Positions 1 through 12,899 of a stretch of DNA of 12,899 bases are shown here, one piece after another (within the stretch, counting starts at the first letter, position 1; every line of letters starts with the position of its first letter). Position numbers and translations under genes: made by a program. The stretch is taken from assembly GCA_048940445.1 (NCBI GenBank), contig JBHLON010000064.1, positions 1 to 12,899 on the forward strand. Direction: 5' to 3'. The notes under the pieces were generated by a model. The model had not been told where the DNA came from. It was given only the letters and a program-made list of their open reading frames with translations, and did not search any database. The stretch comes from Promethearchaeota archaeon (GTDB lineage Archaea > Asgardarchaeota > Lokiarchaeia > Sigyniarchaeales > SOKP01).

Positions 1-91
1 CCCTTGGAATTTATACCTCTATTACAAAAGATATCAAATTATAAGAAAAAATTGTTATTCAAAAAGGAAATAGTAAATTAATAATGAAATT

Positions 92-1768
92 TTAAAAGAT
101 TTGTGGGCTCTGGTATTCTCCAAAAACTTCTCTTAGTACATTACTTATCTCTTCGATGGTTGCATACGTCTTAACGGCTTCTATCATTATTGGCATAATA
201 TTCTTGGAAGATTTAGCTATATTTTTTAGCTCTTTTAACTTTGCGTCTACGAGTTTATTGTCTCTAATTGATTTTAATTCTGTTAGGGATTGCAAAGTTT
301 TTTGTTCAAATTCTGAATCGAATTTAAAGGTATCAATCTTAATTTCCTTTTCGGTGCAAAATGTGTTTACTCCTACTTTTATATCTATGCAATTATCTAT
401 TTTTTTTTGATCAGCATATGCGTTGTTAAGAATTTCTTGTTGAATAAATCCCTTTTCAATGGCAGTCGTAATTCCACCCATTTCATCAATTTTTTTAATA
501 TAATCAAGTGCTTTTTTCTCCAATTCATTCGTTAAATATTCGACGTAAAAAGAGCCACCAAGGGGGTCTACAACATCAGAAACTCCCGATTCATATGCTA
601 TTACTTGTTGAGTTCTTAATGATAAACGAACTGAATCTTCTGTCGGAAGACATAAAGCTTCATCAGCACCACATGCATGGAGAGATTGGGTACCTCCAAG
701 TATGGCTGCTAAAGCCTGAAGAGTAACTCGAATTATATTAACACTTGGTTGTTGAGCAGTTAATGTAACTCCTGCAGTTTGGGTATGAAATCTTAGTCTT
801 AATGAATCAGGATTCTGAGCATTAAATCTCTCTTTCATAAGTTTTGCCCATAGTCTTCTAGCAGCTCTTAATTTTGCTATTTCTTCGAAAAAATGATTGT
901 GAGTAGTAAAAAAGAAAGATAACCTTGAAGCAAAAACATCAATATCTACTCCTCGATTTATAACTTCTTCTATATATGCAATTCCATCTGCTATTGTAAA
1001 TGCTATCTCTTGAATTGCATTACATCCTGCCTCTCGCATATGATATCCACTAATAGAGATAGTATTAAAACGAGGTAAGTGTTTTGAGCAATATTCAATG
1101 ATATCTGCAGTTAATCTCAATGAGGGTTTTGGGGGAAATATATATGTCCCTCTCGCTATATATTCTTTTAATATGTCGTTTTGAACCGTCCCAGTTAATT
1201 TCTCAGGTGGAATTCCTTGTTTTTCTCCGACTGCAATATACATTGCTAATAAAATAGAAGCTGGAGCATTTATAGTCATACTTGTTGATACTTTATCCAA
1301 AGGTATTCCATCAAAAACTTTTTCAAAATCTTTCAACGAATTTACTGTAACCCCTACTCTACCGATTTCTCCTAAGCATAACTGGTTAGTAGAATTATAT
1401 CCCATTTGAGTTGGTAAATCAAAAGCGATAGATAAGCCCATTTGACCTTGTGAGATTAAATATTTAAATCTCTCATTTGTTTTGGTAGCATTTGCAAATC
1501 CTGAATACTGCCGCATAGTCCATACCCTTCCACGATACATATTAGGATAAACTCCTCTCGTAAAGGGGGGCCTTCCTGGAAATCCTAGATCATCTAAATA
1601 TCTAACATTCTCAATGTCATCTGGCCCATATATCTGTTTTAACGGAATTCCCGAAGGAGTTTCAAATCTCTTTTTTGCTTCTCCTTTTTTTATATACCTA
1701 GATAAAACATTTTCTTCCCAATCTTTCCGCTCACTTTTAATTTTATCGAGCTCATCTTTAGAAAACAT
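92..1768 (-). CDS. mcmA: Methylmalonyl-CoA mutase family, large (substrate-binding TIM barrel) subunit, split archaeal type without the B12-binding domain
   Basis: 558 aa with family motifs FPGRPPFTRGVYPNMY, WTMRQYSGF (Tyr88, MCM-type), GLSIAFDLPTQMG, STSMTINA, GTVQNDILKEYIARGTYIFPP, ISISGYHMREAG, RLSFFF, FHTQTAG, GGTQSLH and DPLGGSFYVE. There is no DxHxxG cobalamin-binding domain. Confidence 0.95.
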   Translation of the reverse strand: MFSKDELDKIKSERKDWEENVLSRYIKKGEAKKRFETPSGIPLKQIYGPDDIENVRYLDDLGFPGRPPFTRGVYPNMYRGRVWTMRQYSGFANATKTNERFKYLISQGQMGLSIAFDLPTQMGYNSTNQLCLGEIGRVGVTVNSLKDFEKVFDGIPLDKVSTSMTINAPASILLAMYIAVGEKQGIPPEKLTGTVQNDILKEYIARGTYIFPPKPSLRLTADIIEYCSKHLPRFNTISISGYHMREAGCNAIQEIAFTIADGIAYIEEVINRGVDIDVFASRLSFFFTTHNHFFEEIAKLRAARRLWAKLMKERFNAQNPDSLRLRFHTQTAGVTLTAQQPSVNIIRVTLQALAAILGGTQSLHACGADEALCLPTEDSVRLSLRTQQVIAYESGVSDVVDPLGGSFYVEYLTNELEKKALDYIKKIDEMGGITTAIEKGFIQQEILNNAYADQKKIDNCIDIKVGVNTFCTEKEIKIDTFKFDSEFEQKTLQSLTELKSIRDNKLVDAKLKELKNIAKSSKNIMPIMIEAVKTYATIEEISNVLREVFGEYQSPQIF

Positions 1769-1832
1769 AATTTGTACATCTCTATCGATAATTACTTAAT
1801 AGTTTTTAAAAATAGATTATTCAATTTTATCT

Positions 1833-2186
1833 TTATGCAGGATCAAAAACATAATTATAAATTTCCTTTCCATCAAGACTCTCACAAATCTTTTTATACT
1901 TTGGCTTTAAAACCATTCCAGTATATAAATTCTCTTCAGTAGTAATTTGTCCGAGAGCTTTTATCTTGTTATCAAACTCTACAACTCCAAGTGCATAAGA
2001 TTTTTGATTTCTGAATTCTAAAGGAGGAGATGTCAAAATTGTATAAGTTAATAATTTGCAGAATCTTAATGGGTCAATTTGAGTAAATTCGTGATATTTA
2101 CATTTTAAGCATCTAAGATGAGATATATGTTGTAAAAACCCACATTTATTACACCTTTTCCATTTAATTTTTTCATCAACAGTCAT
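1833..2186 (-). CDS. DUF35-family Zn-ribbon + OB-fold protein (putative acyl-CoA binding)
   Basis: CxxC-x10-CxxC (RCNKCG...RCLKC) followed by LLTYTIL..PP.EF...YALGVVEFD...ALGQI, typical of DUF35. The ORF-track start at 2195 is TTG; the ATG at 2186 is preferred. Confidence 0.88.
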   Translation of the reverse strand: MTVDEKIKWKRCNKCGFLQHISHLRCLKCKYHEFTQIDPLRFCKLLTYTILTSPPLEFRNQKSYALGVVEFDNKIKALGQITTEENLYTGMVLKPKYKKICESLDGKEIYNYVFDPA

Positions 2187-2255
2187 CGAGATCAATGTTT
2201 CTTATACCTTTATCATTTAAAAAAATTATGTTAAGGTTACGTAATTTTAAGAAAT

Positions 2256-4289
2256 TTATCTAAATATTTTTTGAATTAAAACACTAAGCTGAGGAATAGT
2301 ATTTAGTTCAGCCATTCTACCTGATTGAAAAAATTCATTCAAGGCGGTCCAAATTATAGGATCACTTTGAACTTCTTTATTAAATTGAGTTAATCTGAAT
2401 TTAGCAATGTAAGTTTGTCCTTTAAATAAATAACATAATGAAAAAGAGCCAAGGGATTGAATATTCAGTATATAATCCCCAAATTTAGCTCGATCAAGAC
2501 CTTTAGAAAAGATCTCATTACTAAAGCTATTAAATGCACTAAGAAACCCACCAATGATTCCATTCTGAAAGGATAATTCTTCTGTAAAGGAATGGGAAAA
2601 GATAGGAAGACCCCCTTCTCCGATTATCAAAAGAAGTATAGGAGTTTCAGGTTTTAATTTTGATTCTTTAAATGTACTTTTTCCTTGCAATCTATCTATA
2701 ACACCTTTAAAAGAGGCTAATTCTATTCGTTCTGACATTGGCGCATCTATACTCTTAAGATTATCCCAAACGTTCAAATGTTCCAGTAATTCATCATGCT
2801 CACTAGAAATTTTAATAGCTAATAAGTTAAGGCCATGTAACTCAGCTATTTGCTGTGCTTGCGTTAAAATTGATTTAGCTTCATCAAAATTCATTTGAAT
2901 TAATGCTAATTTTGCTTGCAATAATTTTGTTTCTGCCATCCATATAAATGAATGTCTACTATTTGCTAACTCAAGAATTTTGTAAATCAGAGGATTTATG
3001 TCATCCATAATTATTTCGATTTTATTCGTCATGTATAATTCCTCAAAGTAGAGATCACACAGATTAACTAGTGATAAAAGATGAAGTTGAGGAATAGTGA
3101 TATCATCTTCTATGATCTTTTTTAATAATATCTCTGCTTCTGTACGATTACGGATTCGAATACTTTTTTTCAATACCAATGCTTTTGCAATTAAATAGGC
3201 TTGAGAAATTATCCTATTTTCAGTCTGACCAGCTATTTCCTCTAACTCAGCCAAATAATTTTCAGCTTCCTTATGAGAATTCTCATCGAGATTGATTAAG
3301 ATCAAATAAAAGAGAGCTCCATGCATTCCATAAAATGAATTTGCTTCTTTAGCAAGAGAATAACTAAGTTTAAAATGTTTTATAGACTGAGAATAATCAC
3401 CTTTCATTCTGTATGTAGCTCCAATTCCTAATGTAATATAGATTATATCATCAGTACAATTTACTTTTTTTGCTAATACAATTGTACGCTTATAATACCT
3501 CAAAGCCCTGTTTAACTGGCCTCTTTCTCTATAAATAGCTGCTAAAATCTGTGATGAGTCTAGTTTGGTATGAACACTTATGCTGTTAATAGCTAAGCTC
3601 TGTTTACAAAACTTTAAGGCTTCTCCAAAATCTCCTTTCCCATAATAAATTGCTCCAATTAATGAAAGTGATGTCGCAGTCCCAATCGCATTTCCAAGTT
3701 CCTTTTGAATCTTTAAAGTCTTAATGGCATATTCTAAAGCCAAATCAATTTTTTCACTATAGAAGTATACATTACTGATTATCCAATATATACGTGAAAG
3801 ATCTAAGGGGTTGTGGAATTCCTCGCTTAACTCCATCCACTTTAGAGCTAATTCTAATGCATTATTATGTTCATCTTTAAAGAAATAAATAATTGATTTT
3901 ATTAGCAATAAATCAGCTTCTTGCTGAGAAAAATTTAAGGATGATTCCCTAATATTGGAATTAATTATTTTTTCAATTTCTATAATAATGTTGCTAGCTT
4001 CCTCTAATTTCCTTAGTAATACAACATGTGCTTGAAGAATAAGAGCATCAATAGAATCGGGAATCTGTTCTAATTTTTGACTCAATTCATAAGCTCTTTC
4101 ACCCATTTGTACAGCTTCATTGTATTGTTCACAATAAATGTGAATTCTACCCTTTAAAATCATTAAAGAAAGTTTGTTTTTGGAACTTAATGTTTTATTT
4201 TTCTCAAAATCTATAATTGTATTACTGGCTTCCTTAAATTTACCGTTATACATTAATTCTTCTGCGTGTATAATTTCTTTTGGCTTCAT
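2256..4289 (-). CDS. TPR-repeat protein with C-terminal longin-like alpha/beta domain (paralog A)
   Basis: Multiple TPRs (e.g. ATSLSLIGAIYYGKGDFGEALKFCKQSLAI; LGIGATYRMKGDYSQSIKHFKLSYSL). C-terminal domain PILLLIIGEGGLPIFSHSF...IIGGFLSAFNSFSNEIFSKGLDRAKFGDY...LCYLFKG has the longin beta-beta-alpha-beta-beta-beta-alpha pattern. The track start at 4307 is TTG; the ATG at 4289 is preferred. Confidence 0.85.
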   Translation of the reverse strand: MKPKEIIHAEELMYNGKFKEASNTIIDFEKNKTLSSKNKLSLMILKGRIHIYCEQYNEAVQMGERAYELSQKLEQIPDSIDALILQAHVVLLRKLEEASNIIIEIEKIINSNIRESSLNFSQQEADLLLIKSIIYFFKDEHNNALELALKWMELSEEFHNPLDLSRIYWIISNVYFYSEKIDLALEYAIKTLKIQKELGNAIGTATSLSLIGAIYYGKGDFGEALKFCKQSLAINSISVHTKLDSSQILAAIYRERGQLNRALRYYKRTIVLAKKVNCTDDIIYITLGIGATYRMKGDYSQSIKHFKLSYSLAKEANSFYGMHGALFYLILINLDENSHKEAENYLAELEEIAGQTENRIISQAYLIAKALVLKKSIRIRNRTEAEILLKKIIEDDITIPQLHLLSLVNLCDLYFEELYMTNKIEIIMDDINPLIYKILELANSRHSFIWMAETKLLQAKLALIQMNFDEAKSILTQAQQIAELHGLNLLAIKISSEHDELLEHLNVWDNLKSIDAPMSERIELASFKGVIDRLQGKSTFKESKLKPETPILLLIIGEGGLPIFSHSFTEELSFQNGIIGGFLSAFNSFSNEIFSKGLDRAKFGDYILNIQSLGSFSLCYLFKGQTYIAKFRLTQFNKEVQSDPIIWTALNEFFQSGRMAELNTIPQLSVLIQKIFR

Positions 4290-4324
4290 ATTCTTCCGAG
4301 ACTTCAATGAAGTTATATTGTATA

Positions 4325-6559
4325 TTAAAAATCAATTATTGTTACTGGATCATTTAATATATCTTTAAATATATTAAACGAATTAATTACTTTTGTTGAT
4401 GGAATTGTATCAAATTCTTTCTTAAATTTGCAATATTCTTTAGCTGATAAGGGATATGGAAATTTACACTTGATACAAGTCTCCTTTTCTATACATTCAA
4501 CACACTTTCTTTCCTCTGCTACTTTTTTTGACATGTGTTTGAGATTTTGTATAATTTCTGACATACGTATTCCTATTTCTCCAATTGGGGCAGAATGCCA
4601 ACAAATTCGAATAGAATTATCATTACTTATAATGGCTGTTTCTAAAGTCTGACAATTTGCTACATTATTAGTCCATCTACAGAGATTCTGAAAATAGGGT
4701 AATGGATTACTTCCTAAAAGGTAATTAAACTTATTATCAGTTTTTGTTACTTCAAATAAGAGATGGTAGAGAGCTTTGGTATCAGATTTAGAGTGCTCTC
4801 TACAAATTAAGTTCATCAAATCATAATTTCCTATTCTAGTATTTCGCATAGCTAAACTTGTATCTCTAAATCTTATTTTCAAACCAATATTTTCGCCTAA
4901 AAGAGACATTCTCCCTGATTTTAAGACTGTATCTCCATCTATATTTTGTTGATAATAACAATCATAGTATAAGGTTGGTATTAATTTATTATAAAGCATC
5001 GCAAGGTTTTTATCATGGAGTTTTACATACTTTCTCCTATTGGAATAAATTTGGATGATTGTTCCATTTATCATAAGGTTTTTTTGTATCCAGTTTACCA
5101 AAGGGTCTTTTATAACATCAGAATTAATTATCACATTACTAAAGTAAGATTTCTGATTCGTGCGTTTAGGAATTAATGATAAAACCTTTAAATTATTAAA
5201 ATCAATTGTCTTACTATCTCTTTCTATTGTAGATTTAGGGGCTATTTTAATTTTATAGATATCAAATGGAAAATTATTTCTTGTCATTATTTTATTTTTT
5301 TTTCCAATTGGTTTCACTTTATAACCATATTCTTTATAATTATGATAAATTGGAGTTCCTGCAAAGATACGAAAAAAGTTATGTTGGTAATAACTAATAT
5401 CTAATTGATTAATTAGGTCTATCGTTTTTTGAGCATCTTGAATAGTTTCTCCTGGCAAACCAAGCATTATACTTACAAAAATAGAGTTTATACCAATTTT
5501 TTTAGCGTAAGAAGTTATATGTCGCAATTTATCAGTAAACTCTTTTTCTTTATCGAAATTTTTTGACTCAAAATTTGGATTATGGACTTTTCCAATTGTT
5601 CTTAAGACTCTTGGAACCGCACTTTCTAGAGAAAACCCTAATGAAATAAATCCTGCTTGCTTCATTAAGTCTAATAAATCTTCAGTAATATTATCACATC
5701 TAGTAATACAACTAAGAGGAAGTTTGAATTTGTTCTCAATAATTCGTTCGCAAATTCTTTTTGCCCTTGAAGGCACTATAGTAAAACCATCATCTTGAAT
5801 TGAAATGGGTCCTTTATGTAGTTTATATTCATCAAGAAAAGCCAATTCTTCAATAACTCTTTCTATTGAATGAAAAAAGACATTTCTTTTACTCAAAACG
5901 GCACAATTGCAATAAATACAATTTTGGTTGCAACCTCTAGCTGTTATTACGCCCGTAGGATAAGCTTCAGATGGAGGTATAACTCTAGAAAGATAAGGGG
6001 AAGGGTATTTATCTAAATAATTCTTAATTGATCTTTTTGAAAGCAAAATATTGCTATCTGGAGTGTTGATAATTCTATTATATTTCCTAAACGTGATGCC
6101 TTTAATATTATTTAGGTCAGTTTTATTTAAATTATACTCATTTTCCCGTAAAGCAGATAATAACTCAAGAGTAGTTTCTTCTCCTTCTCCTCTAACACAG
6201 ATATCAATACTGATGTTACTCTTCAATATCTCTTGGGATTGTACGGTAGGTGAAGGTCCGCCAAAAACAGTAATAGTATTTGAATTGTAGGTTTTTAATC
6301 CCTTGCATATAAGAACACTCTGCATATAATTTGTTTCATAAACGGTGAATCCTACGATTTTGGGGTTAAATTCCATAATCCTTTTAACACATTCTTTTAT
6401 ATTGTAAGATTCGTTTGAGATAAATTGTTTTGCATTAAATCCTTTTTTTTTTAAATAAGCAATGATATATCCTGATCCTAAATTTGGTTTAAAATTCGAA
6501 ATATGGAGTGATCCACCAGAGGGAAAAACCATTAAAATGTCTGTAAAATCTTTATTCAT
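4325..6559 (-). CDS. Cobalamin-binding radical SAM enzyme with C-terminal SPASM-like Fe-S domain
   Basis: N-terminal B12-binding Rossmann domain (PNLGSGYIIAYL, PKIVGFTVY, VFGGPSPT, DICVRGEGEET). Radical SAM motif TARGCNQNCIYC at 5909-5932 plus IQDDGF, GFSLESAVPRVL and MLGLPGET. C-terminal Cys array C-x8-C-x16-C...CxxC-x5-CxxC-x11-C at 4430-4681. Confidence 0.92.
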   Translation of the reverse strand: MNKDFTDILMVFPSGGSLHISNFKPNLGSGYIIAYLKKKGFNAKQFISNESYNIKECVKRIMEFNPKIVGFTVYETNYMQSVLICKGLKTYNSNTITVFGGPSPTVQSQEILKSNISIDICVRGEGEETTLELLSALRENEYNLNKTDLNNIKGITFRKYNRIINTPDSNILLSKRSIKNYLDKYPSPYLSRVIPPSEAYPTGVITARGCNQNCIYCNCAVLSKRNVFFHSIERVIEELAFLDEYKLHKGPISIQDDGFTIVPSRAKRICERIIENKFKLPLSCITRCDNITEDLLDLMKQAGFISLGFSLESAVPRVLRTIGKVHNPNFESKNFDKEKEFTDKLRHITSYAKKIGINSIFVSIMLGLPGETIQDAQKTIDLINQLDISYYQHNFFRIFAGTPIYHNYKEYGYKVKPIGKKNKIMTRNNFPFDIYKIKIAPKSTIERDSKTIDFNNLKVLSLIPKRTNQKSYFSNVIINSDVIKDPLVNWIQKNLMINGTIIQIYSNRRKYVKLHDKNLAMLYNKLIPTLYYDCYYQQNIDGDTVLKSGRMSLLGENIGLKIRFRDTSLAMRNTRIGNYDLMNLICREHSKSDTKALYHLLFEVTKTDNKFNYLLGSNPLPYFQNLCRWTNNVANCQTLETAIISNDNSIRICWHSAPIGEIGIRMSEIIQNLKHMSKKVAEERKCVECIEKETCIKCKFPYPLSAKEYCKFKKEFDTIPSTKVINSFNIFKDILNDPVTIIDF

Positions 6560-6624
6560 GAAAAAACAACTTAGATTTATTCTAAATTATCTGCGTAAAA
6601 TATCAATGATGCTTTTTCTTATTA

Positions 6625-6643
6625 AAAATTAAAAAAATAAAAT
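6625..6643 (-). terminator. Putative archaeal oligo-T terminator after the 84-aa ORF
   Basis: Minus strand reads TTTTATTTTTTTAATTTTT a few nt after the TAA stop. The AT-rich background lowers specificity. Confidence 0.45.
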
Positions 6644-6648
6644 TATCT

Positions 6649-6903
6649 TTAGATATTCAAATCAGGTGGCGAAGGGATAAAGACACCAAACTCTGCTACT
6701 CTAAATATATCTTCAATATCACCAATATCTGCTTCAGTTACTTTAGGTTTAATAACATTATACCAAAGTCGAGTTCTTAATTGAGACCTTGATTCTTTAT
6801 TATCTATCCCTTGTTGGACAGTATTAATAATTTCTTGAGCAAGATCAGATCCAAACCTCATTTCGATGAGATCTTTCAATTTTGCCGTATTAAGATCTAC
6901 CAT
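6649..6903 (-). CDS. Small acidic hypothetical protein (84 aa); candidate precursor/substrate of the downstream radical SAM enzyme
   Basis: ATG start with SD TGAGGT 7 nt upstream, TAA stop followed by a T-tract, and it fills the intergenic space. Helical-looking N-terminus and a hydrophobic/Pro-rich tail (VAEFGVFIPSPPDLNI). The function is inferred from position only. Confidence 0.8.
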   Translation of the reverse strand: MVDLNTAKLKDLIEMRFGSDLAQEIINTVQQGIDNKESRSQLRTRLWYNVIKPKVTEADIGDIEDIFRVAEFGVFIPSPPDLNI

Positions 6904-6910
6904 AATTTTT

Positions 6911-6916
6911 ACCTCA
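6911..6916 (-). promoter_or_regulatory. Shine-Dalgarno site of the 84-aa ORF
   Basis: Minus strand: aatatGAGGTaaaaattATG. Confidence 0.7.
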
Positions 6917-6942
6917 TATTATTTTGGATTTCGATAATAGAA

Positions 6943-6978
6943 TCAACATTTTTGTTGAAAATTTTTAAATTTTAAAAA
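6943..6978 (-). promoter_or_regulatory. Putative TATA-like element with adjacent palindromic operator upstream of the 84-aa ORF
   Basis: Perfect inverted repeat TCAACA-N4-TGTTGA (6943-6958) next to an A/T-only palindrome TTTTTAAA-T-TTTAAAAA (6962-6978) that contains TTTAAA boxes. Confidence 0.35.
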
Positions 6979-7022
6979 GATCCATTTTCATTTAAACATT
7001 ATTAGTAAATAAGTTAAAAGAT

Positions 7023-7032
7023 AAAAAAAAAA
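7023..7032 (-). terminator. Putative oligo-T terminator after the 116-118-aa ORF
   Basis: T10 on the minus strand, 3 nt after the TAA stop. Confidence 0.5.
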
Positions 7033-7035
7033 GTT

Positions 7036-7386
7036 TTAGATCATTCCATAATTGCGATAATTTATATTTCTTCTAACTTCTTTAGCTGGAATCATTTCTT
7101 GAAGGTATTTAGGATTCAATTCTGCTTTCTTTATAATCTGTTCTAATTCCCGACTTATTTTTGCTAGTTTTTGTATCTCTTTTTGTTCTTTCTTTGGTGC
7201 TTCTAGAATTGATGGTAATGACTTTTGTAAAATTACTTTTTGAATTTCAACTAATCCCATATCATCGGGTAATTGTTCTAGCATCGCAATTAATTCTTCC
7301 TTATATACAACCATCTTTTGTTTCAACTCCATTTTTGATTTTTCTTTTATATTTTTTTTGGACTCATTTGAAGATTTTTTTTCCAT
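7036..7386 (-). CDS. Hypothetical K/E-rich helical protein (116 aa)
   Basis: Open frame co-oriented with its neighbours, with a K/E-rich composition typical of this genome, a TATA-like TAAATATA about 27-35 nt upstream and a T10 tract downstream. The track start at 7392 is TTG; ATG at 7386. No family recognised. Confidence 0.72.
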   Translation of the reverse strand: MEKKSSNESKKNIKEKSKMELKQKMVVYKEELIAMLEQLPDDMGLVEIQKVILQKSLPSILEAPKKEQKEIQKLAKISRELEQIIKKAELNPKYLQEMIPAKEVRRNINYRNYGMI

Positions 7387-7519
7387 CTTCAATATTCAAT
7401 ATAGTTACGAGTGTATATTTAGGTTCGTAGATAAGACTATGATTGGACTCTTGTAATTTTATTGGAGGGAATTTGGCCCATTACATATCAAATAACATAA
7501 AAAGTTAAGAATGGATAAA

Positions 7520-8086
7520 TTAAAGATTCTCGATTTTATATTCTTCTGATAATAATTTATATTTTTGATACAATAAGTTAATTATCACATTAAAAGCATT
7601 AATTACGCCTTGACCTGTTTTAGCACTAGTATAATAAAATCCTAAAAATTCATAATCCTTCATTAATTTTTGAATAGCTGAATCATCTATGGTATTTAGA
7701 TCGATCAAATCGATTTTATTGGCAAAAATAACAGTTGGAATATTACTACAATACTGTTTCAAATCATTATACCAACTTAAAATATGATTAAAACTATTTT
7801 CACCTAGTTTTGTCTTTTCTACACTATATACAATTATTGAAGCATTGCTATTTTTGAAAAATGATGGTTTTAAAAAACTAAAATCATCTTGACCAGCTAT
7901 ATCCCACAATAGCAATCGAACATTTACATTTTCAATTTGTTTATTGTAAACAGAAAATTGAGCACCAATAGTTTTTATATACTCTTTGTTAAACGAACTT
8001 TCTGTAAATCTCTTGATTAGAGAAGTTTTTCCTACTCCTCCATCACCTACAACAGTAATTTTAAAAACAAGCCTTATTTCATCCAT
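7520..8086 (-). CDS. Rab/Ras-like small GTPase (Asgard-type eukaryotic signature protein)
   Basis: G1 GDGGVGKTS, G2 YIKTIG, G3 WDIAGQ, G4 NKID, G5 TSAK. Diverged RabF-like segments IGAQF, RLLLW, FFKNS and IVYSVE. No C-terminal Cys prenylation motif. Confidence 0.95.
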   Translation of the reverse strand: MDEIRLVFKITVVGDGGVGKTSLIKRFTESSFNKEYIKTIGAQFSVYNKQIENVNVRLLLWDIAGQDDFSFLKPSFFKNSNASIIVYSVEKTKLGENSFNHILSWYNDLKQYCSNIPTVIFANKIDLIDLNTIDDSAIQKLMKDYEFLGFYYTSAKTGQGVINAFNVIINLLYQKYKLLSEEYKIENL

Positions 8087-8249
8087 TTTTTTATACTATT
8101 GAAAAAATTGTATTAACTAAAAATACACTTTTAGGGTTTTAAAACTTGCCCTCTTCCCATAAAAGTAAATTATCTAAAATTAATAGTCCAATGTTGGTTC
8201 ATTCCATAAAGTATTAATAGATAAATATCTACTATCTAATTAGAAAATA

Positions 8250-10724
8250 ATGCTAAACATAAATTATCCACCTAGTGAAATTTTAAGACCAATTGTTGGT
8301 AAAACTAATTTTGAATTAACTATACTTTGGATGCTTAAAAATAATAAATCTTGTACATGGTCTAGCTTGAAGAAAGTAGTTAAACATTCAACATTATCAT
8401 TATACCTAAAAAGATTAAAAGAACAAGGTTATATTATAAGAGTTGAATTCAATAAATATCAAATCACTCCAAAAGGAACATTACGGTTTAATGAAATATC
8501 TAAAGTTAGGAAAAAAGAAAGAATTCTAAATTATCCACCAAAAGCAATCCTAAAAGCAAGAAATTATGAACATTGGATTCTTTGGATGGTTTATAATAAT
8601 AGTTATTGTAAATGGGTCGATTTTACTAGTGATGGTTCTTCAGTAAAGATTAGCCAGTCATCTTTATCAAAAGCCTTAAATGATTTGAGAGAACATAATT
8701 TGGTAGAAAAAACAGAAAATCAATACAGAATCACAAAATTTGGTAAAGCACAATATTCTAAAATACTTCAGTTGTATGACTTAGATAAACAATCTATTCT
8801 TCGAGAAGAAAGTAAAAGGATTGAAGAACTTACAACCCAAACACTTCAATTCTTTAAAAAGTTTGAGATTTTGGATAATAATATTAGATACCGATTTCTT
8901 TATAATGTCCTAAGATTACCATTTGAAACATTTCAACATAATTTCGATAATAGAGAAGATTTCTATAAAATTCTGTTATTCCTCGCAATAAATCATCCAT
9001 CTCATTACCCCGAGTATATTACTTCAGAAGAATTTTGTAGAAAGTTTAACGTAGAAAGATTAATCCTAGATTTTCATATTCTTCAGATAGTCGATAAAAA
9101 CATATATCCCATCAAATTCTTTAAATTAAAAGTAGACAGTGATAAAATTTACTATTTCCAAGCCGATGAAAAAGTAGAACAAATGCTTAACGCTGTAATT
9201 GAAGAACAAATTTCAAAGTTTACTTACTTAAACAAACTTTTCGAAAAAATACCAAATGAATCATTTAAAATTACTATGGAATCTGCTCTTACAGCAATTT
9301 TAGATGAGACTTGCGATACTATATTTAATGAAGGTTTTAGAAATGCACTAAGCCAATTGTTACCAGGATATATTAAAGATTTAGCCTATAAAATCGAAAG
9401 AGAGAAAAAGTTAATAGATACTTATGATAAACTCGAATGTTTAATCTGGCAAGAAGTTCAGATGTATGAAAAAGCAGAAGTTCAAGCAGATGTAGAAAAA
9501 GTTTATTTTATCAATCCGGAGTTTTTAGAACTTTTAAATCCTCTTTATAGAAGTAACATTGAGGCGATAGTAAAAAAAGTACAGCCTTTTATGGAGAATA
9601 AAGCTTATCTTAAGGTATTAGAGATTTTAGATAAACAAATTGAGAAGGAGCAAAAAAGTCACGAGCTTATAATTTTTAAAGCAATAGTGCTATGTTATTT
9701 AAACCGAAATATTGATGCTATAAATCTAATAGAAAAGGAGATTGTTTTATCCCGACTTAAACAAGAAGATACTTATATTTCGGTAATGTTCATCAAAGTA
9801 ATTAATCATCTAGTTTTGGGAAATTTTGAAAACGCTTCACAACTTTGCAGTAAGTTAAGTATAAAATACCCAAATTCGCCTTTATCCTATGTAGTAAGAG
9901 GTATTGTATATGGTTATAATTCAATTTATCACTATAAGTTAGAAATTGATGAAAGTGAGAACGGATTAGCTGATATTTCTGAATATTTATCATATGAGTC
10001 ATTTAATTATAATAAATCGATATTATACCAATTTAAAAGTCTTATTTTATTAGAATTGAAAGAATTTGAGGAGGCACTTAGAGCAATCGACAAAGCAATT
10101 GATTTAAGTCCTAATATTCTGCATTTCTATAACTCTAAGGTCAAAATCTTCCTTTATTTTAACAAGTTTGATGAGGTATTGAAATTTCTTGATAGTTTTA
10201 TTGTATTATTCCCTGAAAGTGAAATAGAAATCAAGTTGAAAAAAGCCTATGTATTTAAAAAAATGCGTGAGGTTGAATCAGGACTAAAAATTATTGAAGA
10301 ACTAGTTCAAAATTATCCAGATAATAATGAATTGTTAAACTATAGAGCAACTTGGTTACTATATCTAAATCAAAAAGAACAAGCAGTAGAAATGATTAAG
10401 AAATTAATAGATCTCGAACCAAAAAAAAGCTTATTTCATGACACTTACGGAGAAATCTTAATGACGTTTCAAGAGTATAATGAAGCTATTATAGCATTTC
10501 AGAAAGCAATAGAATTAAAACCAGATATATGGTATAAGTTTCAAACTTATATAAAGTTAGGAATTTGTTTCAAGGAGCTTAAAAACTATGATGAAGCATT
10601 AGAAAAACTCCAAATTGGAAAAGAACTCACAAATAAATGTTACTGTAATCAAGATATTAAAGACAAGTGGCTTTCAATAGCTAATGTCTTTATTAAAGAG
10701 ATATTAGAGCTTGAGGATGCTTAA
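8250..10724 (+). CDS. Tandem winged-helix domain + TPR protein (putative transcriptional regulator)
   Basis: Two N-terminal wHTH-like repeats (STLSLYLKRLKEQGYI...YQITPKG; SSLSKALNDLREHNLV...YRITKFG), an unassigned central region and C-terminal TPRs (EEALRAIDKAIDLSP; DTYGEILMTFQEYNEAIIAFQKAIELKP; YIKLGICFKELKNYDEALEKL). Confidence 0.85.
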   Translation: MLNINYPPSEILRPIVGKTNFELTILWMLKNNKSCTWSSLKKVVKHSTLSLYLKRLKEQGYIIRVEFNKYQITPKGTLRFNEISKVRKKERILNYPPKAILKARNYEHWILWMVYNNSYCKWVDFTSDGSSVKISQSSLSKALNDLREHNLVEKTENQYRITKFGKAQYSKILQLYDLDKQSILREESKRIEELTTQTLQFFKKFEILDNNIRYRFLYNVLRLPFETFQHNFDNREDFYKILLFLAINHPSHYPEYITSEEFCRKFNVERLILDFHILQIVDKNIYPIKFFKLKVDSDKIYYFQADEKVEQMLNAVIEEQISKFTYLNKLFEKIPNESFKITMESALTAILDETCDTIFNEGFRNALSQLLPGYIKDLAYKIEREKKLIDTYDKLECLIWQEVQMYEKAEVQADVEKVYFINPEFLELLNPLYRSNIEAIVKKVQPFMENKAYLKVLEILDKQIEKEQKSHELIIFKAIVLCYLNRNIDAINLIEKEIVLSRLKQEDTYISVMFIKVINHLVLGNFENASQLCSKLSIKYPNSPLSYVVRGIVYGYNSIYHYKLEIDESENGLADISEYLSYESFNYNKSILYQFKSLILLELKEFEEALRAIDKAIDLSPNILHFYNSKVKIFLYFNKFDEVLKFLDSFIVLFPESEIEIKLKKAYVFKKMREVESGLKIIEELVQNYPDNNELLNYRATWLLYLNQKEQAVEMIKKLIDLEPKKSLFHDTYGEILMTFQEYNEAIIAFQKAIELKPDIWYKFQTYIKLGICFKELKNYDEALEKLQIGKELTNKCYCNQDIKDKWLSIANVFIKEILELEDA
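8262..8770 (+). repeat. Internal tandem duplication of an ~89-aa wHTH module
   Basis: NYPP..IL...N[FY]E..ILWM..NN..C.W starts at residues 5 and 94. The DNA TAAATTATCCACC occurs at both 8260 and 8527 (267-nt period). Confidence 0.8.
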
Positions 10725-10732
10725 ATTCAAGT

Positions 10733-12568
10733 TTAGTCTCTTGATAACCATTCTGTTGTAATAAAACTTTTAGTAATTAGATCCTCTAAGATGGGATGCT
10801 GTGTTAACTGTATGATATTAAACTTTTTCAAAAAATCATTAAATATTTGCCATATAGAGGAAAGATCTTTCATGTGATTTGTAAAATAGCTTAATTTTTG
10901 TTTTGCGAAGTATGATTGTCCTTTAAATAAGTAACAAACTAAGAATTCTTCAATAGAATTCATAAGTATTGTATGATGCCCAAATTTTGCTCGATCTAAA
11001 CCTTCAGAAAAGATCTCCTTGCTAATTGAATCAAACGTAGTCAAGAATCCACTAAAAAGTTCGTTTGAAAAATCCCATTCTTTAGAAAATGCATGAGAAA
11101 ATGCGGGAATTCCCCCATCAGTTATGATTAAAAGTAATAAGGGTTGCTCTTCTGACAATTGTGGAATATCTACGATTCTTTTTTGAATTAATCTTTTCAT
11201 TTGGTCTTCTATCTGGGTTAACTTTAGCCTTTCACTGAGAGGTGAATTAGATTTCTTTAAATCCTCCCATAGATCTAATTTTCGTAATAATTCATCATGT
11301 TCAGTTGAAATTTTCATTGATAATCGATTGAAGCCATATTTTTCAGCTATTCGTTGTGCTTCAGATAATAGTTGTCGAGCATTTTTGGTATCAAAGATTA
11401 ATAATGCTAATCTCGCTTGTAAAAGTTTTGTTTCAGCAATTAAAGGAAACGAACTATTTTTCTCTGCCAAATCTAGCAATCTAGAAAAATAGGGCTGAAT
11501 TTCCTTAAGTATTCCAAGATCATTTGTATTACGGAGATCTATAAGCAATAAGTCGCATAGATTAAGGAGAGCATCAATATGAGCTTCATACAAAACAACT
11601 TCTTGTTCTACTGCGCTTCTTAATATTTTCTCAGACTTAGAAAGATTACTTGCTCTGGGTTTAGCTTTTAAGAGTAGTGCTTTATTGATCTTATAATTTA
11701 ATTTAATAATCTCATACTCATCAACTTGTTTATTTTTAAGATCCCTCATCTTTTCCAAATAAGTTTGTGCCAATTTAAGATCTTCCTTATCTAAAGCAAC
11801 ATGAAAAAGTGAATCAAGAATAATAGGAATTTTTGAGCTTTTTATATCCTTAGAAAGTTTATAACTTTGGTTAATATATTCAAACGCCTCATCTAGTTTT
11901 CCTTGAATTCTGGATATCCATCCTAAATTATTAAGAGCAATAATAGTATTTTGGATATCATTTAAATCCTTTGCAACAGATAATGCTTGACCATAGGATT
12001 TAATGGCAGTCTCTAAGTTACCTTTTATGCCATAATATGTGCCAAAATTCAGGGTAAATTGCATTATTAATCTTTTATCTTCTACTTCTTTTGCTAATAT
12101 TAATCCTTGTTCTAAACATTTCTTTATAAGATCTAATTCTCCTCTCGCAAAATGAATACCGCCTTTTATAAGAAATAAAGGAGCATAACTTTTTTGAATT
12201 TCTTTAGTTGGATTAGGAAAATGAAGTTTAAAAATTTGTTCTGCTTTATCTATAGATTCAAGAGCTTCTTCTAATTTACCAAACCTCCAGAGGACCCAAG
12301 CAATGAGATTTAAAGCTTCTATTGATTTATCATAGCATCTATCTTTTTCACTTTCAAGAAGAACTGATTCTGCTAGTTCTTGGGCATCTTTTAAATTTCC
12401 AATATCTAAAAATAAAGAACTCTTTAATAGCTGGATTTTAAATAAGGTTTCTTTTGAAAATTGATTGTTCCTCTCTAAATTAGTCACAATATTAAGAGAT
12501 TCTTCAAATTTCCCTTCCTTCTTAAGTTTCTCTGCTTTTTTAAACTCTTCTAAATCGTTATTTACCAT
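10733..12568 (-). CDS. TPR-repeat protein with C-terminal longin-like domain (paralog B)
   Basis: TPRs (ALNLIAWVLWRFGKLEEALESIDKA; ALNNLGWISRIQGKLDEAFEYINQSY). Shares blocks with 2256-4289: AETKLLQA[KR]LAL, KIS[ST]EHDELL, EIFS[KE]GLDRAKFG and CYLFKGQ[TS]Y.AK. Confidence 0.87.
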   Translation of the reverse strand: MVNNDLEEFKKAEKLKKEGKFEESLNIVTNLERNNQFSKETLFKIQLLKSSLFLDIGNLKDAQELAESVLLESEKDRCYDKSIEALNLIAWVLWRFGKLEEALESIDKAEQIFKLHFPNPTKEIQKSYAPLFLIKGGIHFARGELDLIKKCLEQGLILAKEVEDKRLIMQFTLNFGTYYGIKGNLETAIKSYGQALSVAKDLNDIQNTIIALNNLGWISRIQGKLDEAFEYINQSYKLSKDIKSSKIPIILDSLFHVALDKEDLKLAQTYLEKMRDLKNKQVDEYEIIKLNYKINKALLLKAKPRASNLSKSEKILRSAVEQEVVLYEAHIDALLNLCDLLLIDLRNTNDLGILKEIQPYFSRLLDLAEKNSSFPLIAETKLLQARLALLIFDTKNARQLLSEAQRIAEKYGFNRLSMKISTEHDELLRKLDLWEDLKKSNSPLSERLKLTQIEDQMKRLIQKRIVDIPQLSEEQPLLLLIITDGGIPAFSHAFSKEWDFSNELFSGFLTTFDSISKEIFSEGLDRAKFGHHTILMNSIEEFLVCYLFKGQSYFAKQKLSYFTNHMKDLSSIWQIFNDFLKKFNIIQLTQHPILEDLITKSFITTEWLSRD

Positions 12569-12720
12569 TTTTCTTTTTCAAATCTGTTTATATTTTCAGA
12601 AATCATTTATAAGTTTTTATTAAACCCTAGACTAGTTTTCAATATCCTTTACATTGGATATATTAAAATTAAAGGAAGAGAAGAATTATTAACTTAAAAG
12701 CCTTTTTCATCTACTATTTT

Positions 12721-12743
12721 AAAATAAAGTTATAAAAAAATAA
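12721..12743 (-). terminator. Putative oligo-T terminator after the 45-aa ORF
   Basis: Minus strand TTATTTTTTTATAACTTTATTTT immediately after the TAA. Confidence 0.4.
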
Positions 12744-12881
12744 TTATTTTTTCTTATTCAAATAGAACCACGTTTTAGCCTTTGTTCCATAGGAGTAAGT
12801 CGAGACTTTCAAATGCTTAAAATGTGGCTTTGAACCGTTTGGTGGCCGATTTAATTCATACTTTTTCTCTACTACAACCAT
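12744..12881 (-). CDS. Small basic hypothetical protein, 45 aa (absent from the ORF track)
   Basis: Manual translation gives MVVVEKKYELNRPPNGSKPHFKHLKVSTYSYGTKAKTWFYLNKKK*. SD AAGGAGG lies 10 nt upstream. An in-frame TAA at 12897-12899 shows it is not the tail of a longer gene. Alternative ATG at 12890. Confidence 0.65.
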   Translation of the reverse strand: MVVVEKKYELNRPPNGSKPHFKHLKVSTYSYGTKAKTWFYLNKKK

Positions 12882-12891
12882 TTTATTCATT

Positions 12892-12898
12892 CCTCCTT
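12892..12898 (-). promoter_or_regulatory. Strong Shine-Dalgarno site for the 45-aa ORF
   Basis: Minus strand tAAGGAGGaatgaataaaATG. Confidence 0.65.
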
Positions 12899-12899
12899 A

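Follow-up and report, generated by a model that had tools for sequence, protein, structure and literature searches.

The locus and its enzyme gene

We have analyzed a stretch of 12,899 nucleotides (nt) from a Promethearchaeota archaeon (assembly GCA_048940445.1, contig JBHLON010000064.1, positions 1 to 12,899 of the forward strand), called here the window. The gene under study lies on its minus strand and encodes a B12-binding radical S-adenosylmethionine (SAM) protein of 744 amino acids (aa) that carries a cysteine-rich tail resembling the SPASM domain. The gene is present as a single copy in its genome and is flanked by genes for a small protein and for a tetratricopeptide repeat (TPR) protein. 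The features needed to follow the analysis are given below, together with the evidence used to delimit them (ORF, open reading frame; AF2, AlphaFold2 model).

4325..6559, minus strand: gene of the 744-aa B12-binding radical SAM protein with a SPASM-like tail (P0001), from the ORF list and its translation
6161..6487, minus strand: N-terminal cobalamin-binding Rossmann domain, residues 25-133 (PF02310)
5411..5950, minus strand: radical SAM partial TIM barrel, residues 204-383 (PF04055)
5909..5932, minus strand: C210-x3-C214-x2-C217 radical SAM cluster motif, followed by the conserved C219
4715..5302, minus strand: alpha/beta region that separates the barrel from the Cys-rich module, residues 420-615, about 200 in all (AF2)
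4430..4681, minus strand: eight-Cys SPASM-like module, residues 627-710 (Cys invariance, hhalign)
4607..4639, minus strand: beta-hairpin predicted for residues 641-651 (AF2), flanked by C636 and C653 and including Asn648
4466..4504, minus strand: C686-x2-C689-x5-C695-x2-C698 loop, all four Cys being found in 62/62 diverse relatives
6649..6903, minus strand: gene of an 84-aa small protein (P0204), 90 nt upstream of the enzyme gene
2256..4307, minus strand: gene of a 683-aa TPR protein (P0002), 17 nt downstream of the enzyme gene (TPR Pfam hits)

The tail had been pointed out in an earlier note, made from the sequence alone, as an unusual fusion of a cobalamin-binding radical SAM enzyme with an eight-Cys SPASM-like domain encoded at positions 4430-4681. 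Codon mapping showed these coordinates to be exact for residues 627-710, the codon for residue 627 being nt 4679-4681 and that for residue 710 being nt 4430-4432. The Cys spacing given there was also recovered in the translation, and reads C627-x8-C636-x16-C653-x32-C686-x2-C689-x5-C695-x2-C698-x11-C710. Eight Cys are thus found within 84 residues, compared with 12 in the remaining 660 residues of the protein.

A cobalamin-type radical SAM core

The N-terminal part of the protein gave clear matches to two Pfam families. The cobalamin-binding domain proposed in the earlier note was found at residues 25-133, with a PF02310 score of 61 bits over a cut-off of 32.1, and the Radical_SAM family PF04055 matched residues 204-383 with 64.7 bits (cut-off 29.5). 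The three Cys of the CxxxCxxC motif (C210, C214 and C217) are invariant across 49 close homologues (described in the next section). C219, found in 48 of the 49, is located two residues past this motif. In the solved enzymes of class B, the cobalamin-type radical SAM enzymes, this "Cys loop" position makes contact with cobalamin or SAM. Other conserved Cys fall outside the known motifs, namely C121 and C270 (invariant in the close family) and C284 and C288 (in 46/49).

Three motifs that contact cobalamin have been described from OxsB, TsrM and TokK: a downstream G/A-x-S/T-x, a GG on beta4 and a GE at the start of alpha5 (PMC9204698). All of them have counterparts in the enzyme, at G70-F-T72-V-Y74, G100-G101 and G126-E127, where the helix begins at 127. 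Four of these residues (G70, G100, G101 and E127) do not vary among the 49 homologues, and two more, Y74 and G126, are conserved in at least 90%. The full-length AF2 model was of good quality, with a predicted local distance difference test score (pLDDT) of 86.9 and a predicted template modelling score (pTM) of 0.90, and its best matches among solved structures were the cobalamin-containing class B enzymes CysS, MgmA, TsrM and TokK. A phmmer search of the whole protein against the PDB sequences likewise returned class B enzymes only. As far as sequence and fold show, the gene encodes a genuine class B radical SAM enzyme, for which cobalamin binding is predicted.

The enzyme does not fall into a named branch of this class. 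The NCBIfam scan found no class B equivalog near its cut-off, the best scores being those of PhpK (101 bits, cut-off 600), ApyD (97, cut-off 750), BchE (92.5, cut-off 481) and HpnJ (92.3, cut-off 578), and none of these models covers the C-terminal 330 residues. In the AF2 model the barrel ends around residue 415 and is followed by the alpha/beta region (420-615), made of alternating strands and helices with pLDDT mostly between 85 and 98. This region is conserved, and no Pfam or NCBIfam family matched it.

Conservation of the eight cysteines

A large protein collection was searched with the C-terminal 305 residues of the enzyme. This search returned 52 proteins, nearly all of 733-747 aa and with both the B12-binding and the radical SAM domains, from metagenome-assembled genomes (MAGs) of Promethearchaeota (Lokiarchaeota), Hodarchaeota, Hermodarchaeota and Thorarchaeota. 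Of these, 49 could be aligned as full-length close homologues (identity 43-70%), and the eight Cys of the tail are invariant in all 49. A search limited to one genome per species gave 63 loci, and full-length relatives at 39-43% identity were found in Bacteroidales, Aminicenantes, Desulfobacteraceae and other bacteria.

The widest sampling came from an exhaustive phmmer search with residues 441-744 against 1.8 billion representatives, in which the architecture was carried by at least 153 clusters (at 50% identity) from archaea and bacteria. Most of these clusters match the module alone (approximately residues 622-720), whose position does not change among these proteins, 700-890 aa in length. 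Of 62 representatives that were sampled, 60 have the B12-binding and Radical_SAM domains; two carry a class I methyltransferase domain instead, and two carry a PqqD domain. Across these 62 diverse relatives, with a mean column identity of 26%, seven of the tail Cys are present in every one. The eighth (C636) shifts by a few columns; its pattern could be recognized in 122 of 149 representatives, and fragments make up many of the others. Such conservation of the Cys is far beyond chance.

Relationship of the tail to SPASM domains

The SPASM domain is defined by a seven-Cys motif, CX9-15GX4C-gap-CX2CX5CX3C-gap-C (PMC6231123). The tail of our enzyme has all seven Cys in this order, plus an eighth upstream, and deviates from the motif at three points: the first interval is x16, residue 648 (five before C653) is Asn where SPASM has Gly, as the earlier note had observed, and the last interval of the four-Cys loop is x2 in place of x3. 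These deviations become smaller in the wider family. The SPASM Gly is found at position 648 in 31 of the 62 diverse relatives, and 27 of them have a Pro at position 652, just before the Cys. CxxCx5CxxC is also found in PF13186-positive SPASM domains of relatives (for example L086), and the Cys spacings of SPASM domains are known to vary (PMC9477430). The extra upstream Cys that had been listed among the deviations is not one, as it corresponds to the known eighth ligand, such as Cys255 of anSME (PMC6231123).

Evidence of homology came from the comparison of profiles. The genome itself holds four proteins that pass PF13186, and genuine PF13186-positive domains were gathered from it and from twelve relatives for alignment with hhalign. 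A module profile of 123 sequences, aligned to 15 of these domains, gave a probability of 83.8% (P 7.9e-6) and a score of 36.6, compared with 15.9 for the reversed alignment and 16.1 for the best of 40 column shuffles. With a non-overlapping set of seven PF13186 domains the probability was 82.0% (P 1.1e-5; shuffle maximum 15.3), and with the combined set 87.1%. Overall, the real scores were 35-37 and the controls never exceeded 16.1. The alignments are in register along the whole module, including the Cys before the hairpin, the G-x4-(P)C hairpin, the GN(I)/IG(x)VG turn, the CxxCx5C..C and the last Cys.

The predicted structure is consistent with this. In the AF2 model C627 lies in a short helix and C636 in the helix 635-638, followed by strands 641-645 and 649-651 (pLDDT around 90) and by C653; then come the helix 666-683, the four-Cys loop 686-698 and C710 in the helix 706-715. 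The predicted order matches the canonical beta1'-beta2'-alpha2' elements of SPASM/twitch domains (PMC6231123), a match that covers the order only. The low pLDDT of the four-Cys loop (below 50) is what one would expect of a metal site when the metal is left out of the model.

Other searches gave weaker indications. When the module hidden Markov model (HMM) was run against all the ORFs of the genome, its first non-self match was a 160-aa ORF on contig C70 with a CxxxCxxC motif (E 0.016); the second, also weak, was a SPASM-type radical SAM ORF on contig C96 (E 0.15), and further down it weakly reached a PF13186 protein on contig C110 (E 5.7). The ORF of C96 (64591-65724, plus strand, 378 aa) has a SPASM-like tail with CxxCx5CxxC and was absent from the PF13186 search of the genome. 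The ESM Atlas gave no more than a lead: of the 30 named clusters nearest to the tail, 18 belong to the set with PF13186 as listed Pfam family (scores up to 0.94), PF13186 being carried by 11-17% of the members in the listed clusters. One homologue (P0045) is labelled by JGI as "radical SAM protein with 4Fe4S-binding SPASM domain", indicating that automated pipelines occasionally detect the domain. Profiles and predicted structure together support the view that the tail is a divergent homologue of the SPASM domain, and they show that a whole branch of this domain escapes the SPASM HMMs now in use.

Predicted cluster ligands and a natural four-Cys variant

We have found a natural variant of the module in one bacterial lineage (L028, at positions 3612-3959, and the proteins P0082 and P0102). 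Its module keeps Cys 1, 2, 3 and 7 and is devoid of Cys 4, 5, 6 and 8. A deletion of some 13 residues has removed Cys 4-6, and K, R or M stands in place of Cys 8. The Aminicenantes MAG that contains L028 also contains L025, a locus whose copies have all eight Cys.

In anSME the first auxiliary cluster (Aux I) is held by Cys255, Cys261, Cys276 and Cys330 (PMC6231123). By analogy with this enzyme and from the pattern of joint loss in the three variants, we predict C627, C636, C653 and C698 as the ligands of Aux I and C686, C689, C695 and C710 as those of Aux II. The split between retained and lost Cys coincides with the Aux I and Aux II sets of anSME, which supports a domain with two sites. The variant reproduces in miniature the relationship between SPASM and twitch domains, and it is probably the result of a single evolutionary event. 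Following the same analogy, two auxiliary [4Fe-4S] clusters, each with Cys as its only ligands, are most likely bound by the complete tail, in a crossed topology like that of anSME.

Distribution of the architecture

RadicalSAM.org/SFLD and the reviews treat the B12-binding enzymes (subgroup 5) and the SPASM/twitch enzymes (subgroup 17) as separate groups (PMC8950095, PMC9204698, PMC9477430), and each group is credited with a mechanistic logic of its own (PMC8950095, PMC9477430). Our literature search, of incomplete coverage, found no paper in which a radical SAM enzyme combines B12 binding with a SPASM domain. The description of the protein as an unusual fusion therefore holds with respect to the published classification (PMC9477430), and does not hold if taken to mean rare, given the number of clusters that carry it. 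The architecture is real, widespread and uncharacterised.

The module is also found in other contexts. In P0172 (561 aa) and P0160 (624 aa), where no radical SAM domain was detected, it follows a class I SAM methyltransferase domain, and in the distant member P0152 (835 aa) it is followed by a fused PqqD domain, a RiPP recognition element (RRE; RiPP, ribosomally synthesised and post-translationally modified peptide), with 28.7 bits over a cut-off of 23.4. With such changing partners it behaves as a mobile unit.

The gene is patchy in its distribution. Genome searches detected it in 3 of 151 genomes of a phylum sample and in 3 of 41 of a family sample. A near-universal presence in Asgard archaea, which we had first assumed from the strong synteny, was ruled out by these counts. 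The sole further copies in the 40 other family genomes are in G095 (same genus) and G138 (same family), which are 51% and 55% identical to the protein of the window, and the closest public match, in another MAG (L001), is 70% identical. This patchy spread, with identities that do not track relatedness, suggests horizontal transfer. The sporadic distribution despite the synteny fits an accessory, probably mobile, module.

The small protein, the TPR protein and the gene neighbourhood

In a search with an HMM of the small protein, 30 of the 35 loci inspected in archaea and bacteria had a homologue in the 900 nt upstream of the enzyme gene and in the orientation of that gene. These proteins are of about 80 aa and have no match in Pfam or NCBIfam. 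Their N-terminal body is helical and conserved (...L-x-x-x-(F/Y)G-x-x-x-(A/G)-x-x-I...), and their C-terminal tail is short, variable and hydrophobic and often reads [FW]-x-T-V-G, a design of leader plus core. The one in the window ends differently (…IPSPPDLNI). At L025 three tandem paralogues of the enzyme (7735-10002, 9989-12223 and 12539-14791) are found among three copies of the small gene (L025:7431-15000); two of the copies are directly upstream of the first and third enzymes and the third is just downstream of the last. This arrangement suggests that they were duplicated as units. We consider the 84-aa protein a probable substrate or partner of the enzyme, and the tight pairing of the two genes makes it a candidate substrate in a system that is directly testable. 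No PqqD (RRE) match was found by Pfam or NCBIfam in the protein of the window or in its neighbours, this domain being fused in distant members only, such as P0152. No peptidase, protease, transporter or exporter is conserved in the enzyme neighbourhoods.

A TPR homologue adjoins the enzyme in 23 Asgard loci. A TPR protein is also adjacent in Lokiarchaeum ossiferum (L020:7468-9483), and TPR proteins adjoin the pair of enzyme and small protein, in a different gene order, in Bacteroidales (L021:6717-9080 and L022:7346-9511). P0002 has weak matches, far below the cut-offs, to NF040586 FxSxx_TPR (E 5e-4) and NF041717 HaaT (E 1.4e-3), both of them RiPP-associated TPR families.

Other genes of the window are the following.

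7036-7392, minus strand: second small ORF, ending …RNYG(M/L)(I/L), syntenic in many Asgard loci
7520-8086, minus strand: Ras-family small GTPase, syntenic in many Asgard loci
8250-10724, plus strand: divergent winged helix-turn-helix (wHTH)-TPR gene, syntenic in many Asgard loci
10733-12568, minus strand: second TPR paralogue, syntenic in many Asgard loci
1833-2195, minus strand: small ORF with an OB-fold, ChsH2_C-like, after the TPR gene in 8 loci
92-1768, minus strand: methylmalonyl-CoA mutase large subunit (717 bits), after the TPR gene in 8 loci

The syntenic genes and the enzyme seem to move as one island in Asgard loci. The methylmalonyl-CoA mutase gene lies 2.5 kb from the enzyme gene, indicating that the genome uses B12.

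Interpretation and alternative explanations

We interpret the protein as a class B radical SAM enzyme with a divergent SPASM tail, in which three Fe-S clusters plus cobalamin would be held in one chain, and we give this interpretation a probability of about 0.68. It agrees with what the earlier note had proposed, up to three clusters with cobalamin and possibly a built-in electron delivery to the latter. Several results weigh against it. PF13186 and TIGR04085 match neither the whole protein (E<=0.1) nor the isolated tail (E<=10), so that the SPASM-like character claimed for the tail stands at the level of profile homology (82-87% by hhalign, in register) and is missed by the curated models. 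Among the 62 relatives PF13186 was found only weakly in two, with a best E of 0.0069, and the hhalign profile of the close family alone reached a probability of only 15%. In the structure search with the full AF2 model, the SPASM enzyme SuiB aligned over the barrel only (residues 197-444). The module is found some 200 residues past the barrel and not directly C-terminal to it as in canonical SPASM enzymes. Finally, CxxC-x5-CxxC could alternatively form a mononuclear Zn or Fe site.

The last point leads to a different reading of the tail, as a structural zinc module with two Zn(Cys)4 sites (of the zinc-ribbon or cross-brace kind) or as a rubredoxin-like mononuclear iron site, with no [4Fe-4S] cluster, that would stabilise the C-terminus or bind a partner. 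The four-Cys loop does resemble paired zinc knuckles. The tail's sole match in the Pfam and NCBIfam scans (isolated tail, E<=10) was the Cys-rich Furin-like_2, below threshold, and in the hmmsearch of the family profile against the PDB sequences, where nothing was significant for the tail, the sole non-self matches were weak ones to zinc-binding pieces, the N-terminal domain of DnaI (E 0.29) and the ZZ region of p300 (E 0.58). Foldseek against the PDB and a VIA-wide structure search recovered no SPASM fold and no credible match for the isolated tail, whose AF2 model had a pLDDT of 65, an outcome that speaks neither for nor against the fold. However, the DnaI and p300 matches are not significant. 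The profiles of genuine SPASM domains align in register with the module at scores well above those of the shuffles, and the more distant members of the family show the SPASM hairpin, Gly and Pro. The natural variant is also informative here: knuckles predict Cys 4-7 and Cys 1-3 plus 8 as units, while the joint loss of Cys 4, 5, 6 and 8 fits the crossed sets of SPASM. We therefore regard a zinc or mononuclear iron module as quite improbable. The same can be said, on other grounds, of an enzyme whose N-terminal Rossmann domain has lost cobalamin binding, like that of AprD4, and which would be a plain SPASM-type maturase with a vestigial B12-like domain. The three cobalamin-contact motifs are all present and invariant or nearly so, the nearest structural matches contain cobalamin and the genome uses B12, making such a loss quite improbable.

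The identity of the substrate is a separate matter. The small protein might be a chaperone or a subunit, and the true substrate a lipid, a sugar or a cofactor, as for a good number of class B enzymes, among them HpnJ, BchE and those that modify glycerol dialkyl glycerol tetraethers (GDGTs). PhpK, BchE, HpnJ and a B12 radical SAM family of lipid biosynthesis are among the top NCBIfam similarities, and the lack of a conserved protease or exporter, of an RRE domain in the enzyme of the window and of the [FW]-x-T-V-G end in its small protein would all fit such a substrate. Against it, the small gene is kept directly upstream in most of the loci across two domains of life and has been duplicated together with the enzyme in L025, its conserved body and variable tail resemble a leader and a core, P0152 has a fused PqqD domain, and SPASM domains are best known from maturases of peptides and proteins (PMC6231123, PMC10114670). 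We consider a non-peptide substrate possible, although doubtful.

With a class B enzyme that carries a SPASM tail and acts on the small protein, a reaction can be outlined. The radical SAM cluster would cleave SAM, and the resulting 5'-deoxyadenosyl radical would attack the C-terminal tail of the co-encoded protein of about 80 aa. Cobalamin could carry a methyl group or take part as a redox partner. Both auxiliary clusters together might work as an internal electron wire, either returning electrons to the radical SAM cluster or to cob(II)alamin or withdrawing one from a product radical, a role that has been proposed for the auxiliary clusters of SPASM maturases. Built-in electron delivery to cobalamin is thus conceivable by analogy with other cobalamin enzymes. 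More tentatively, the small tail-bearing protein, the TPR protein and the enzyme may form a mobile system common to Asgard archaea and anaerobic bacteria, one that makes a new C-terminally modified protein or peptide-derived cofactor by means of cobalamin and two auxiliary clusters. If this were true, the class of reaction would be one described for neither parent subfamily.

Electron delivery in class B enzymes is a long-standing practical and mechanistic problem, and a clade that joins both subgroups would be a natural system in which to follow the routes of electrons to cobalamin and to the radical SAM cluster. It would also raise a second question, namely which reactions become accessible to an active site surrounded both by a cobalt centre (methyl or redox) and by two auxiliary clusters.

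Comparison with known systems

The enzyme of the window is 16-19% identical to the solved class B enzymes CysS (9n1d), TsrM (6wte/6wtf), TokK (7kdx), MgmA (9ccb) and OxsB (5ul4). No Cys-rich C-terminal module was found in these, which end in helical cap domains (PMC9204698), whereas the protein described here has in addition the eight-Cys domain and, before it, a spacer of some 200 residues. In the radical SAM methyltransferase Mmp10 the cobalamin domain is C-terminal, that is, in the opposite order, and there is no twin-cluster module of the SPASM type.

Like those of anSME, PqqE, SuiB, CteB and MftC, the tail contains seven or eight Cys in the order Cys, hairpin, Cys, helix, CxxCx5Cx(2-3)C and Cys. 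Further likenesses to the SPASM maturases are the upstream eighth Cys and the association with the gene of a small peptide or protein. It differs from them in being missed by the curated HMMs, in the x16, Asn and x2 already mentioned, in its distance from the barrel and in the core to which it is attached, of the B12 type and not of the subgroup 17 type. At the level of the gene cluster the closest parallels are the FxSxx-COOH and mycofactocin-type systems, in which a small protein with a short C-terminal tail is found with a radical SAM/SPASM enzyme (and, for FxSxx, with a TPR protein). Here, in contrast, the core is of class B and the small protein belongs to an unrelated, unnamed family.

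Epoxyqueuosine reductase (QueG) and the reductive dehalogenases offer another kind of parallel. In these enzymes one cobalamin is fed by two Cys-ligated [4Fe-4S] clusters located in the same chain. They use a ferredoxin-type 2x[4Fe-4S] motif, have neither a radical SAM cluster nor SAM, and are unrelated in fold and ancestry. The likeness is therefore a functional analogy, and it illustrates how electrons could be delivered to cobalt by clusters built into the same protein.

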